Part shown: positions 22,648 through 25,890 of the stretch, piece by piece | How the letters are laid out: the number at the start of each line of letters is the position of its first letter | Numbering within the stretch: the first letter of the stretch is position 1 | DNA from: an uncultured Chloroflexia bacterium | GTDB lineage: Bacteria > Chloroflexota > Limnocylindria > Limnocylindrales > CSP1-4 | Direction: 5' to 3' | Length of the DNA: 40,279 nucleotides | Assembly: GCA_963766735.1 (NCBI GenBank) | Contig: CAVYBU010000009.1 | Span: forward strand, 1 to 40,279 | Notes under the pieces: generated by a model | Seen by the model: only the letters and a program-made list of their open reading frames with translations | What the model was told of the DNA's origin: nothing | Databases searched by the model: none | Translations under genes and position numbers: made by a program

Positions 22648-22905
22648 TCAAGCGCGAGGGACCTGCTCCAGCGCCGGCACCACCAGCCACCCCTCGGCCC
22701 GTCCGCGGTAGATCAGCTGCTCGGTCGTGAGGCCCGACCTCGCTCGTAGGTCGGCCAGGTGGCGTTTCGCCGTGCTCGGCCGGACGCCGACGCGCGCCGC
22801 CGCGTCCCGAACGGAGCCTCCCGTGGCAACGAATGCGGCCAGCACGTCGACCTGGCGGGCGGTTGGCGTCCGCGGGAGCGTTCCTCGCAGGTAGCCGTCC
22901 CTCAC
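22648..22905 (-). CDS. small stand-alone LuxR-like HTH protein (HTH-B)
   Basis: TPTARQVDVLAAF...AAARVGVRPSTAKRHLADLRARSG; GTG overlaps the holin stop; partial copy at 30427. Confidence 0.75.
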   Translation of the reverse strand: MRDGYLRGTLPRTPTARQVDVLAAFVATGGSVRDAAARVGVRPSTAKRHLADLRARSGLTTEQLIYRGRAEGWLVVPALEQVPRA

Positions 22906-23087
22906 ACCGGGCTCACGCGGCTGCGCGTGATGAGCCCGAGAACCACCGCCGTGACCGCCAGGATCGCGCCGATCTGGTCGGGTGCGAGGGAAAGGCCGAA
23001 CGCCACGACCAGGGCGATGACCGCCTGGACGAGGGCGAGGACGAGCGCCGGTTCTCGGCCGAAGATCGTGCCGGGCTGGGTGTCCAT
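22902..23087 (-). CDS. putative holin (2 TM)
   Basis: IFGREPALVLALVQAVIALVVAFGLSL...RSRVSPV, directly after the amidase. Confidence 0.75.
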   Translation of the reverse strand: MDTQPGTIFGREPALVLALVQAVIALVVAFGLSLAPDQIGAILAVTAVVLGLITRSRVSPV

Positions 23088-23098
23088 GGCTCCTCCGC

Positions 23099-23826
23099 TC
23101 ACTTCACGCGGACGATGTCGCCCGGGTGGATGAGCCCGGGGTTGGCGCGGTACTTGGCGTTCTCCGGGAACACCAGGAGGCCTTGAGCGTGAGGCTGTGC
23201 GCGGCAGCGATCGCGGAGAGGCTGTCGCCCGACTTGACGGTGACCGTCACGATCGGTGGCCGCAGGATCGCGTTGGCCCGGGCGATGACGCGCTTGTCCC
23301 GGGCCTCCCTTGTGGCCGGCGGCCAGGGGTCGCTGCGGCGGGACACGCTGTTGATGTCGGCGTGGGTGACCACGGTGCTGCGGTTGACCGGGATGCCGGT
23401 CGCCTCCGACGCCGCGGCGACGAGCTGGGCGACGGCCTCGAACTGGGCATCGGTGTAGGGCTCGGTGCCGGCGCCCGAGCACTCGATCGACTCGTGCACC
23501 CATTCGTTCATGTTCACCCCCGAGGCGACCGCGGCGGCGATCGTGGGGAGCTTGGTGTTGGGATGCGCGACGTCACCCTGGCTCCAGGCGGCGTACTTGG
23601 CCGGGTCGATCGCGCGGATGATCGTGCCGTCGCGGTCGATGTAGGCCGTGGCCGACGGTCCAGCGGAGCCGGCCCGGTTCGCGTAGTTGCGCTCCTGCAT
23701 GGCCGTCGCCTTGGCGTTGGCGGTCTGGTGCAGGCAGGCGAGGATCGTCGGCTTCCGCCGTCGCCGGGCGCCGCGCGTCGGGTAGCCGTACGCCTTGTTG
23801 GTCAGCAGACGGGTGATCGTCGTCAC
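23099..23826 (-). CDS. N-acetylmuramoyl-L-alanine amidase (Amidase_2-like) with C-terminal LysM; one frameshift near 23180
   Basis: LHQTA, AAWSQG, SIEC, VVTHADI..DP; VTVKSGDSLSAIA...LIHPGDIVRVK. Confidence 0.85.
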
Positions 23827-24053
23827 CTCACGCCCCTCCACAGAGCCGAGGCCTCGAGCCCCAGTAGCGCGAGGATCGCGCCCAGAAGAGGGAGCAGGGT
23901 GCCGGGTGAGACGTTGTAGTCGGGGACGGCGACATCGAGGACGAGTAGGACGACGAGGACCAGAGTGAACGCAGCCGCGGCGCCGATCCGGGCCGAGGAG
24001 TAGTCGTCGGTCCGCCGGCGGTCCGGCGCATCGTCACGATGCTCATCGCCCAT
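23823..24053 (-). CDS. small 2-TM protein of the lysis-like module
   Basis: 76 aa; two hydrophobic helices; overlaps both neighbours. Confidence 0.65.
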   Translation of the reverse strand: MGDEHRDDAPDRRRTDDYSSARIGAAAAFTLVLVVLLVLDVAVPDYNVSPGTLLPLLGAILALLGLEASALWRGVR

Positions 24054-24168
24054 GCCGGCGCAGTCGGTCGATCCACGCATCGACGAGGGTCGGCAGGAGC
24101 CAGCGGTCGAGGGCGATGCCCATGGCCACGCCGGCGAGGAACGCCGCGACGAGCTCGAACCCGCTCAC
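24043..24168 (-). CDS. small 1-TM protein (41 aa)
   Basis: VSGFELVAAFLAGVAMGIALDRWLLP; coupled GTG start. Confidence 0.55.
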   Translation of the reverse strand: MSGFELVAAFLAGVAMGIALDRWLLPTLVDAWIDRLRRHGR

Positions 24169-24251
24169 CGGGCATCCGACGGGTTGACGGCGCGGACGTA
24201 CCCGGCGGGGGGACCCGGGAGTCGGTGTGGATCGGACCAGCGCGCCGTCAT
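24165..24251 (-). CDS. 28-aa peptide heading the lysis-like operon
   Basis: MTARWSDPHRLPGPPAGYVRAVNPSDAR*; stop overlaps the next GTG (GTGA); CACGCT 6 nt upstream. Confidence 0.4.
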   Translation of the reverse strand: MTARWSDPHRLPGPPAGYVRAVNPSDAR

Positions 24252-24383
24252 GCCTCAAGCGTGCGGGCGGCGGGCCGTGGTTACTAGTTGGCCGATTGGG
24301 CCATGGACGACTTGACGGACGTGATGCGCAAGCTCATTCGCCGCTTCGATCCGGCGACGGCAGGGCCGTTCGTCCGATGCCGG

Positions 24384-25203
24384 CTACTCGGCGGCGCCGA
24401 CGAGTTCCTGTGACGGCGCCTCGGTCCGCTGGGCGGGAGCCTCGACCGCCGGCTTGACGCCGCGCACGACCCGCATCTCCTCCTCCGCGGTCAGGCTACC
24501 GAGAAGGTTCACGAGGCGGCTGTCGCCACGGGTCGACGCGTACGACACCGAGACCTCGGCGAAGCCTGCCTCCTCGACCAGTCGCCGCGCGTCGTCCTCG
24601 CTCCAGACCCAGACAGCCCCCAGGACCTGATGGGTCTCGGTTCCCATCGGCGACCTTCGCCCCGAGGCTCACGACGGCTCGTCCGCCGGGGCGCAGAACC
24701 CGGCACATCTCGGCCATGGCGGATCCCGGGTCGGGAAAGGCTTCCACCGAGCCCATGCAGGTGACGACGCTGAACCGCCCGTCTTCCCACGGCAGCGCCG
24801 CGGCATCGCCGTTGATGATCTCCGCGGTCCCGGCCGTGATCCGGTCGACCAGCCGCCGACGGGCGAGGCCGACCTGGATGTCGGACAGGTCCAGGCCCGC
24901 GACGTGGCGGACGTGCGCGGCCTGCGTTGCCAGGAAGACGCCCGACCCGCAGGCAACCTCGAGCAGGTCGTCGTCTGGCTGGAGATCGAGCTCTCGGGCC
25001 ATCACCGGATAGATCGGTGCATGGAGCACGGGCATGGTCCAGTTGCTGCTGATCCAGCCAAGGGGGCCGCTCGGGACGCCAGCCCACGACCACGCCAGCT
25101 TCGTGAACCACGAGGTCCAGGTTGCGCCCCTCAGCCGTGGAGCAGCGAAGACCAGCCCTGCCACGATGGCAGCGAGCGCTGCCCGAGCCATCAGCCTTCG
25201 CAT
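24384..25203 (-). CDS. class I SAM-dependent methyltransferase; frameshift near 24650
   Basis: LLEVACGSG, GDAAALPW, EMCRVLRPGG; C-terminus (LVEEAGF) in the 24384-24647 frame. Confidence 0.85.
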
Positions 25204-25456
25204 GGCACTACCTCCCGCGCACGCACCGCGCGTCGGTTTCGCCAGTGGCCTCGACGCGTCCCGGAGGCCACGTCCGGGCCGCGTGTCACGCGTCCCACGT
25301 GCGGAACGAACGTAGCCATGCGTTGCCGGGGATGGCTAGAGGCATCAGTCATGAGCTGGTCGGAGACATCACCGGAAGGGCCGGATCCAGCCTCGGGGGA
25401 CGCGCTCGACGACCGAAGCGCGCTCCGGGGACTGCCGGGGGCGACGAACTCGTGTA

Positions 25457-25726
25457 TCAGCGGATTCGGGCGGGCGGTTGCCACTCGTCCGATTGGGCCA
25501 CGCCCTCCGGCTCAGGCAGCCGCGGCGCCAGGTACCACACGAGCTGGGCCGTGGTCGCCGCACCGACCCTGGACCGGGCGTTGGCCAGGTGGTGCTTCAC
25601 GGTCGAGTGCGACAGGCCCAGGCGGTGGGCGGCCGCCTTCTCCGAACCTGCTGCGACGACAGCAGCGACCACCGCGAGCTCGCGGTCCGTGGCGCGCTCG
25701 GCTGGTCGGGACGGCCGGCGCGTCAT
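25457..25726 (-). CDS. small stand-alone LuxR-like HTH protein (HTH-A)
   Basis: TDRELAVV...KAAAHRLGLSHSTVKHHLANARSRVG; ATG overlaps the stop of the upstream tail (ATGA). Confidence 0.78.
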   Translation of the reverse strand: MTRRPSRPAERATDRELAVVAAVVAAGSEKAAAHRLGLSHSTVKHHLANARSRVGAATTAQLVWYLAPRLPEPEGVAQSDEWQPPARIR

Positions 25727-25890
25727 GCGCTCCGGACCAGCTCGCACGGCTCTGGAGGCTCGGCGAGCCGCATCGTGATCGGAAGGTCGTTGGTGGCGGG
25801 GCTATCCCTCTCGCCCCGACCGAACTGACCTTCTTTCACGCGGACGACGCCGGTTCCGAAGGCCGCGTGCCAGCCTCGCGCCGAGGGCGA
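25723..25890 (-). pseudogene. orphan reading frame crossing the tRNA-Pro-like att site (putative recombinase 3' end)
   Basis: open frame SPSARGWHAAFGTGVVRVKEGQFGRGERDSPATNDLPITMRLAEPPEPCELVRSA*; same position relative to HTH-A as the AARRLA tails. Confidence 0.5.
25794..25821 (+). repeat. att-like site with tRNA-Pro-type 3' end
   Basis: CC-TCTCGCCCCGACC fits the tRNA-Pro pattern CCTCT..CCGACCA; left arm is an 8/13 dyad about the CC. Confidence 0.6.

Follow-up and report, generated by a model that had tools for sequence, protein, structure and literature searches.

The subject of this report is a compact group of genes on the minus strand of a stretch of DNA from an uncultured Chloroflexia bacterium. 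The window, meaning the whole stretch that was analysed, is an entire contig of 40,279 bases with a G+C content of about 70% (G000:C9, where G000 is the genome that holds the window). The genes in question form a lysis block, copies of which are present in this genome on three contigs (C9, C3 and C8), together with a regulatory gene and the end of a recombinase gene, and they were compared with a set of 66 loci from species-representative genomes. The window probably carries the left-attachment-site (attL) arm of a decayed member of a family of phage-derived integrative elements, and the copy is most likely immobile. The hosts of this family are uncultured Limnocylindria (Chloroflexota).

The lysis block and its neighbours

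Read along the minus strand, on which all the genes of the group lie, the order begins with a putative attL core (25807-25821), a 15-nt sequence that also occurs, as its reverse complement, at the 3' end of the tRNA-Pro(CGG) gene that this genome carries on C3 (380099-380175). The core falls within a 38-codon open reading frame (ORF; 25723-25839), of which the part at 25723-25806 corresponds in tblastn to the last codons of a large serine recombinase, matching residues 487-528 of the recombinase REC1 at 69%. The TGA of this recombinase tail overlaps the ATG of the next gene, HTH-A (25457-25726), in an ATGA junction. HTH-A encodes a stand-alone helix-turn-helix (HTH) protein of the LuxR/GerE type (GerE, E 1.1e-06, 28.6 bits, above cutoff), and is followed by a cargo gene for a SAM-dependent methyltransferase (24384-25203). 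After the methyltransferase comes a short remnant of an HTH-A 3' end (24285-24305), reading MAQSAN-stop, which constitutes the left border of the lysis block and contains the inverted repeat TGGCC-N5-GGCCA (repeat D13).

The block itself contains a 28-aa ORF (24165-24251) that overlaps a conserved leader, and then five genes. TM1 (24043-24168; 41 aa) has one hydrophobic segment by hydropathy and TM2 (23823-24053; 76 aa) has two. Neither protein belongs to a Pfam (above cutoff), PHROG, NCBIfam or PADLOC family, and a search of a protein atlas, which gives leads only, returned scores for TM2 that were all below 0.9. The third gene encodes an Amidase_2-LysM endolysin (23099-23828), whose amidase domain is well supported (E 3.7e-17, 63.3 bits against a cutoff of 26) and matches 11 endolysin or amidase PHROGs, the top one at E 5.9e-13. 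It is followed by a 61-aa holin (22902-23087), which has two hydrophobic segments, matches the holin family phrog_9752 at E 1.3e-11 and has a GGAGGAG motif ahead of its ATG; a longer ORF with a GTG start extends to 23102. The last gene, HTH-B (22648-22905; 85 aa), is a paralogue of HTH-A, since a search with HTH-A matches it at E 2.1e-6. Pfam gives only sub-threshold HTH families for HTH-B, and the protein atlas leads to clusters of small proteins, unnamed or of GerE type, one cluster being partly of phage origin.

The genes are very tightly packed. The 28-aa ORF and TM1 share a GTGA junction, as do TM2 and the amidase, TM1 and TM2 overlap by 11 nt, the holin and HTH-B meet in a GTGTGA, and the amidase stop is separated from the holin start by a 13-nt gap that holds a Shine-Dalgarno-like motif, such that from the 28-aa ORF through HTH-B there are either overlaps of 4-11 nt or a 13-nt spacing. 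The gene order and positions reported in the first-pass annotation of this sequence, along with its remark that the lysis genes overlap or nearly abut, are borne out by the ORF list, Pfam and these junctions. Two of its gene assignments hold in part. The amidase-LysM protein does contain Amidase_2, but the C-terminal half of its LysM domain lies in another frame owing to a 1-nt deletion at about 23180, and Pfam matches only positions 2-21 of the LysM profile. The deletion is found in the window copy alone, the base being present in 10 of 10 other copies of one alignment and in 29 of 29 of a larger set, and the frameshift may be an error of assembly. Similarly, the inserted methyltransferase is indeed located between HTH-A and the block, but it is broken across two frames near 24640-24650, with the Methyltransf_11 match (E 9.6e-20) on 24496-25203 and a second ORF at 24384-24647 in the other frame. 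A paralogue with 44% identity is present on C8. A further claim, that the locus has no virion, replication or conjugation genes, agrees with a Pfam scan of 40 ORFs across the window, among which no such family was found.

Conservation of the block

The block is a unit with sharply defined ends. It spans 1.64 kb, from the HTH-A 3' remnant through the HTH-B stop codon, and is 82-86% identical from end to end in ten other loci, while near-full copies with 77-92% identity number 29 among the 66 loci. The left border falls on the identical base in 17 copies, and at the right border, the stop codon of HTH-B, similarity ceases in 14. The full order of HTH-A, a gap of 0.5-3 kb, TM1, TM2, amidase, holin and HTH-B was recovered in 9 of 13 retrieved stretches. 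To judge from these recurrences, the gene pattern is more than chance.

The genes within the block also bear the mark of selection. The ratio of nonsynonymous to synonymous change (dN/dS), a check that the first-pass annotation had proposed, was calculated by the Nei-Gojobori method from 11 block copies (55 pairs), with the wrong frames of the same stretches as a control. The values run from 0.12 to 0.33, with 0.33 for TM1 (off-frame 1.5-1.8), 0.21 for TM2 (1.7-2.6), 0.19 for the amidase, 0.18 for the holin and 0.12 for HTH-B, the off-frame values across the genes being 1.5-4.0. These ratios indicate that all five genes are under purifying selection, and the low in-frame values of TM1 and TM2 argue that these two are real genes, despite their belonging to no described family. 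For HTH-A the ratio is 0.49 in frame against 1.2-1.3 off-frame, as derived from 84 cores in which truncated copies are included.

The best-conserved part of the block is the leader at 24185-24250, where column identity reaches 93-95%. Its consensus fold, read from 24250 to 24185, is a predicted stem-loop of -34.7 kcal/mol, and a 12-nt insertion that is present in five copies is located in the terminal loop. Only one of 27 pairs is compensatory, in two sequences, and as most columns are invariant the stem-loop is a candidate structure only. The 28-aa ORF that overlaps the leader had been proposed as a peptide gene. It was dropped in favour of the leader because its coding signal is weak (dN/dS 0.62 against 0.91 and 1.32 off-frame), the lengths of indels close to its end are not divisible by three, and the region has a consensus fold.

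How widespread, then, is the block, and how recently has it moved? HTH-A occurs about ten times in G000, where parts of the block recur on C3 and C8, and it matches 22 of 24 genomes of the genus, in multiple copies, and none of 16 genomes of the sister family. The amidase is matched in 26 of 70 genus genomes (G000 included), with at most five matches per genome when fragments are counted. In the database it has 374 relatives at E <= 1e-3, the best 120 of which are 73-92% identical and mostly 242 aa long. Its reading frame is intact in 17 of 30 copies and broken in 13. With the window excluded, intact frames make up 8 of 18 in records with CA-prefixed accessions, which we take to be long-read assemblies, against 9 of 11 in the others, and some of the breaks may be assembly errors. 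The highest identity among 435 pairs of block copies is 92.4%, with eight within-genome pairs at 83-91%, so that no recent transfer or spread is visible. Three records labelled as other bacteria (L038, Actinotalea; L054, Gemmatimonadota; L082, Actinomycetes) hold the amidase with an identity of 90-92%, in two cases on a short contig, which could reflect either mis-binning or transfer.

Public sequencing data also contain relatives of the block. No public run contained at least half of the sampled words of the stretch. Run contigs aligned at 88% likeness or more, from two sediment DNA runs and from two RNA-library runs (sediment and estuary), cover relatives of the core, and their loose ends at 22665, 24305 and 25821-25827 are the borders found by comparison. 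As these contigs belong to relatives, they cannot settle either the 1-nt deletion or the expression of the window copy. Cover over the methyltransferase is low in X1 and X2, an observation given no weight here, and the joints in the run contigs are set aside as well, being short-sided and drawn from mixed communities. In the two RNA libraries, X15 and X16, which come from separate studies, contigs match block relatives at about 90% likeness, which is a faint hint of transcription only, as DNA can occur in such libraries.

The HTH-A remnant and the cargo slot

The left border of the block is explained by the end of HTH-A. The usual C-terminus of HTH-A is RLPEPEG(M/V)AQ(T/S)DE-stop, to which the start of the block, MAQSAN-stop, is homologous, and in G000:C8 and in L021 HTH-A continues directly into the block. 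Homology of the block start together with these uninterrupted copies indicates that HTH-A once adjoined the lysis genes, just as the first-pass annotation had supposed from the remnant. The 5-5 inverted repeat within the remnant could be an operator.

Between the full HTH-A and the 3' remnant there is now a slot of 0-3 kb that holds different genes locus by locus. In the window it holds the methyltransferase. Elsewhere it contains an ECF sigma factor with a partner, a PARG-like macro domain protein, VanZ, zinc-ribbon proteins, or a YCII protein with an ECF sigma factor. Head or tail genes between HTH-A and the lysis genes, the arrangement that would have pointed to an ordinary prophage, are seen in no locus, variable cargo being all that is found there. 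The slot was also considered as an integron-like cassette array, which was ruled out as the borders of the units differ, one being the tRNA-derived att core and the other the duplicated last seven codons of HTH-A. Just upstream of the methyltransferase, at 25222-25303 on the minus strand, there is a riboswitch-like match to the c-di-GMP-II-GAG family, which at 27 bits (E 0.052) falls below the Rfam gathering score of 40 and is a lead only.

The variety of the cargo raises the question of whether the block belongs to an anti-phage abortive-infection island, in which the lysis genes would kill the infected cell early and the slot would gather defence genes. Neighbouring cargo in relatives does include AbiEi/AbiEii and a methyltransferase that matches the model of a MADS component at E 3.6e-17, and prophages often carry defence genes beside a repressor-like gene. 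Yet the cargo is mostly of a non-defence kind (ECF sigma factors, VanZ, YCII, zinc-ribbon proteins, hemerythrin), and a search with 5,027 PADLOC models gave no match for the holin, amidase, TM1, TM2 or HTH-A, and for HTH-B only two weak matches in its HTH region at E 4e-4, so a role in defence is highly improbable.

Recombinase and attachment sites

The left end of the element is set by the attachment site. In about 25 copies similarity begins at a single point roughly 100 nt upstream of the HTH-A start, which is the att core. What places the recombinase at this site is the way in which its gene ends. The recombinase matches the serine-integrase family phrog_95 at E 3.8e-36, and full-length versions, both with a Resolvase domain (PF00239), are encoded in L019 (656 aa) and L020 (500 aa). 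In four loci (L029, L031, L033 and L034) the 3' end of the recombinase gene reads into the reverse complement of tRNA-Pro(CGG), whereas in L010 and L019 it continues from the same point into the tail and HTH-A. On G000:C8 the recombinase reading frame enters the att site in frame; in L019 the tail stands out of frame behind the full-length gene. These alternative continuations, antisense tRNA or tail, imply that the crossover site is situated inside the recombinase gene's own 3' end. Integration is accordingly predicted to split the gene, so that its final 32 or so codons end up on the opposite side of the element. On integration these codons would be exchanged for codons provided by the antisense strand of the tRNA gene.

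In the window the recombinase is absent as a body and is represented by those last approximately 32 codons. An 18-nt version of the core has a single match in the window, and chance matches were obtained in 14 of 100 shuffles, so the weight of the attachment-site argument is carried by position and by the relatives. No second att core was found in the 40-kb window, nor any tRNA gene.

A second type of recombinase targets tRNA-Arg(CCG), and it is here that the most complete element is found. In L020 a 17-bp direct repeat of the tRNA-Arg(CCG) 3' end, at 3489 and 12166, bounds an element of 8,677 bp, which contains the 500-aa recombinase ORF, an HNH fragment, HTH-B, holin, amidase, TM2, TM1, one cargo gene and HTH-A. 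The lysis block within it is intact, and a remnant of an older recombinase lies just outside the element.

Whole elements in relatives

The maps of the 66 loci share a recurrent order, in which the att site and recombinase tail are followed by HTH-A, cargo, the block up to HTH-B, 1-6 kb of variable genes, an HNH endonuclease gene (identified with PHROG), a recombinase that is mostly in fragments, and a tRNA gene. A tRNA-Pro(CGG) or tRNA-Arg(CCG) gene is present within 10 kb in 11 loci, and in L044 the distance from attL to tRNA-Pro is 6.6 kb. Judged by these ends, the better-kept relatives are elements of 6.6-8.7 kb inserted in the 3' end of tRNA-Pro(CGG) or tRNA-Arg(CCG), with the block as their attL arm. 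A Replic_Relax gene is paired with the recombinase in six loci. Recombinases near the block are mostly fragments or interrupted by stop codons, a full or near-full gene being found within 10 kb in about 5 of the 66 loci. Genes for a DNA translocase of the FtsK/TraB type or for type IV secretion are absent from the Pfam-scanned ORFs of the window and of L016-L028, and no small terminase, capsid or portal family was found among the ORFs scanned in the window and its relatives. In L026 HTH-B is immediately followed by an AbiEi/AbiEii pair (7752-9202, minus strand).

G000 contains two other block copies. On C8 (1-16200; L001) at least three units of att site, tail and HTH-A form an array, each with different cargo behind it, and the array ends in the block, whose lysin keeps only its first 27 codons, joined to the C-terminal portion of a serine recombinase. 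The block is kept only in the unit nearest the recombinase, the older units consisting of HTH-A and cargo. On C3 (380099-386647; L002) the second block copy adjoins tRNA-Pro(CGG) and an HNH gene; there, according to labels given from reading the translations, a different Amidase_2-type lysin replaces the amidase-LysM and an IS110-family transposase is positioned between the leader and TM1.

The persistence of the block can also be viewed as domestication by the host, which would use it for regulated lysis or release, be it explosive lysis that yields vesicles and free DNA or holin-endolysin-assisted export, and would keep it whether or not it is mobile. The purifying selection on all five genes is consistent with this, as are the outlasting of the recombinase by the block and HTH-A (about 5 of 66 loci with a full or near-full recombinase against 17 of 30 amidase ORFs intact) and the faint transcriptional hint of X15 and X16. 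Nonetheless, host use is improbable given that the block is patchy (26 of 70 genomes) and variable in copy number, that 13 of 30 amidase copies are broken, that the older units on C8 have retained HTH-A and cargo and not the block, and that the cargo is of cytoplasmic kinds rather than exported toxins.

Origin from a phage lysis cassette

The source of the block is indicated by a few relatives that are linked to virion genes. One of these is L102, a contig from IMG/VR, which encodes in order a small membrane ORF, a TM2 homologue (32% identity over 72 aa, E 5e-9), a beta-helix-like ORF, an amidase (52% identity), a holin homologue (34% identity, E 2e-4), an unknown ORF, the small and large terminase subunits (TerS and TerL), a portal protein and a major head protein. 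The ORF between TM2 and the amidase (427-1449, plus strand; 340 aa) has no PHROG family, and by eye it contains repeats like those of a right-handed beta-helix. In L104 a holin with 64% identity is followed by TerL and portal genes, while in L016 an HNH gene and then TerL remnants lie downstream of HTH-B, an order of HNH followed by TerL that is also seen in L105 and L106. These virion-linked homologues indicate that the module is a phage lysis cassette, almost every copy of which has lost the virion block.

The extent of that loss can be gauged with the L102 proteins as queries. TerS, portal and head protein are detected within 10 kb of the amidase in none of the 66 loci, and TerL fragments in two, leaving 64 loci without any of the four proteins. 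The four have no tblastn match anywhere in G000, in line with what had been noted for the window alone. Across the genus, TerL of L102 matches 9 of 70 genomes, and is full-length in G051 only.

The question also arises whether the reduced elements could be a selected, self-propagating minimal mobile element, either a satellite equipped with its own lysis module and with an HNH protein that would let a helper package it, or an element that is dispersed through host lysis and DNA release. The idea of a minimal integrative element, as opposed to a randomly deleted prophage, was put forward in the first-pass annotation, and L020 gives it substance, being closed, 8.68 kb in length, bounded by 17-bp repeats, and in possession of both a full recombinase ORF and an intact block. 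It is also favoured by the 64 of 66 loci that are without a terminase, portal or capsid homologue, by the three block copies in G000 unaccompanied by any homologue of the L102 virion proteins, by the lower frequency of TerL than of the amidase in the genus (9 against 26 of 70 genomes, the latter with up to five matches, fragments included), and by the pairing of Replic_Relax with the recombinase. What is weakened is the contrast with a deleted prophage: the cassette plainly comes from a tailed-phage lineage, the region after HTH-B is variable and the window copy is degraded. The stretch from HTH-B to the recombinase is absent in L086, where the two abut, in L071 the holin abuts the recombinase, and elsewhere the gap is 1.5-6 kb, a variability more in keeping with many separate deletions than with a single design that propagates. 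TerL fragments persist in L042, L082, L016, L105 and L106, identity across the 435 block pairs does not exceed 92.4%, most nearby recombinases are fragmentary or contain stop codons and the window copy has none, and no small terminase or capsid-redirecting gene is present among the scanned ORFs. A selected minimal element is, on this balance, unlikely.

Proposed mechanism and state of the window copy

Taken as a phage derivative, the block may be understood as follows. The lysis genes would derive from a tailed-phage lineage in which they precede the terminase genes, and the small elements would be the remainder after loss of the virion block. The two LuxR-type proteins may control the operon, with the inverted repeat at the left border of the block as a candidate operator. 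On expression, the holin would open the membrane, possibly partnered or timed by TM1 and TM2, after which the amidase would cut the peptidoglycan and thereby lyse the cell.

The copy in the window is decayed in several respects. There is no recombinase body, no tRNA and no HNH gene downstream, the LysM domain has suffered a deletion and the methyltransferase a frameshift. Lacking both the recombinase body and the tRNA, the copy is probably immobile. It seems also to have been preceded by another, as an HNH endonuclease fragment (26931-27119, minus strand), in which 26950-27055 shares 83% identity with the HNH gene of C3, adjoins the 3' half of a second HTH-A (26754-26930, minus strand; repeat D1, 122 nt at 84%, with an HTH-A tblastn match). 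To judge by these matches, the two are debris of an older copy.

Several points weigh against this account of the window as the attL arm of a decayed, phage-derived element. A search of 50,697 deposited phage genomes gave nothing for the amidase at E 1e-5, and as a single sequence it has no relative in IMG/VR either, where an alignment search retrieved L102 alone as a distant match, so that the parent phage is known from one 10.7-kb contig and a few fragments. Even in L102 there is no detectable homologue of TM1, which does not align to the first ORF of that contig. The low dN/dS values may date from a time when the genes belonged to functional phages rather than to the reduced elements, and the amidase frame is broken in many copies, as described above. 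The operator, the mode of regulation and the parts played by TM1 and TM2 are predictions from sequence. Finally, an empty site could not be rebuilt for the window copy, which means that its right end is undefined; the flanks of the element are 1.8 Mb apart in G006 and otherwise occur only as single genes.

Even so, a decayed member of a phage-derived family remains the preferred reading, held with reasonable confidence. A more radical one, that the whole family of 6.6-8.7 kb tRNA-integrating Limnocylindria elements without virion genes consists of working elements of a new kind, be they satellites or 'lysis islands', and that the window copy was recently disabled, is conceivable though doubtful. 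In that case the family would have retained, under selection, the self-splitting serine recombinase, the two LuxR-type regulators, the cargo slot and the complete cassette; satellites would bring their own lysis timing and an HNH protein with which a helper could package them, and the islands would move, or benefit the host, through controlled cell bursting that frees DNA or vesicles. As a class, the reduced elements may be satellites, domesticated lysis modules or slowly decaying remnants.

Other features of the window

The other ORFs scanned in the window are ordinary cellular genes, which according to Pfam encode a sulfate permease, glutamate dehydrogenase, a two-component pair, a Fic protein, cation efflux proteins, ArsR, a class-V aminotransferase, a DsbA-like thioredoxin, GDT1, hemerythrins, an ECF sigma factor, PadR and PanB. 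One hemerythrin gene (25926-26723) is situated between the debris of the older copy and attL; in 18 relatives it is single-copy and located elsewhere. The GDT1 gene that follows HTH-B in the window likewise stands elsewhere in relatives. A further HTH-B-like gene (30424-30627, minus strand; 60% amino-acid identity), the third of its kind, adjoins a 489-aa ORF (30572-32041, minus strand) for which no Pfam, PHROG or PADLOC family was found. Ten large unknown ORFs from the window, L020 and L026 gave no PHROG family.

With regard to regulatory features, a c-di-GMP-II-GAG riboswitch match at 27126-27210 on the plus strand scores 50.5 bits (gathering score 40, E 5e-8) and is found just upstream of the ECF sigma gene (27268-27807). 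About eight more copies of the same sequence, some 72 nt long, are scattered over G000. A simple scan of 22400-26100 gave no promoters or terminators, and shuffled sequences likewise gave about none.

The right-hand 14.5 kb of the window (25728-40279) is repeated at 97.2% identity on G000:C24 (1-14512), a contig whose end coincides with the HTH-A start. This repeat could be a large duplication or reflect two strains in one bin. Breaks between contigs coincide with HTH-A repeats.

Relation to known systems

Limnocylindria are widespread in soil, sediment and freshwater, and this genus has no cultured members. To our knowledge, almost nothing is known of the phages and mobile elements of the class. 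Full-text searches, as seen in result listings and the starts of abstracts, found no description of equivalent elements and nothing relevant on the riboswitch variant, and for Limnocylindria prophages they returned mere co-mention of the two words.

The closest parallel for the block itself is provided by the temperate tailed phages of Gram-positive-type hosts, which have lysis cassettes with extra small membrane proteins, as in mycobacteriophage Ms6. As in such cassettes, a small two-segment holin adjoins an Amidase_2 endolysin with a wall-binding domain, extra small membrane proteins are encoded in a tightly overlapping operon, and in L102 the cassette stands just before the terminase genes. 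It differs from them in being bracketed by two paralogous LuxR-type regulators, in being nearly always without virion genes, and in that TM1 and TM2 belong to no described family.

For the element as a whole there are parallels with defective prophages, which can be under purifying selection, and with tandem accretion that leaves cis-mobilisable remnants of the CIME type. Integration into tRNA genes, the placement of new copies beside old ones (L020 and the C8 array) and remnants without a recombinase of their own are common to both. In contrast, the recombinase here is a large serine enzyme and not a tyrosine one, and the part kept most often is the lysis cassette with its regulators, which is not usually reported as retained. 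Small phage satellites, such as P4-like elements, PICI and the minimalist PICMI type, offer a comparable size of 6-9 kb, an integrase of their own, site-specific integration, regulators and an absence of virion genes. Unlike these, the present elements have yielded no small terminase, capsid-size or helper-sensing gene, have no known helper, carry a full lysis cassette, which would be unusual for a satellite, and show a pattern of decay that points to deletion derivatives.

The behaviour of the recombinase recalls the SSV-type integrases of archaeal viruses, where the phage-side attachment site (attP) is inside the integrase gene, such that integration splits the gene. Here too the crossover appears to fall within the recombinase coding sequence, with the body at the tRNA and the final 32 or so codons on the opposite side of the element. 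The differences are that this is a large serine recombinase of bacteria and not a tyrosine enzyme, that only the extreme 3' end is split off, and that the body, where it meets the tRNA gene, runs on in frame into the antisense tRNA. The parts of the element are thus known in kind, namely a lysis cassette, a large serine recombinase, tRNA integration and tandem accretion. Their combination, its prevalence in Limnocylindria and the crossover inside the recombinase gene appear to be undescribed within the literature searched, so far as listings and abstract openings reveal.

Significance

The analysis defines a recurrent element with exact borders, two tRNA targets and a self-splitting serine recombinase. 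The recombinases and their tRNA-core sites are possible genetic tools, and the set of lysin, holin and membrane proteins should act on the cell wall of this group of bacteria. If the reduced elements are functional, they would represent an unusual mobile or domesticated unit that is centred on lysis rather than on particles or conjugation. If they are remnants, they would show which parts of a prophage persist longest in these genomes.

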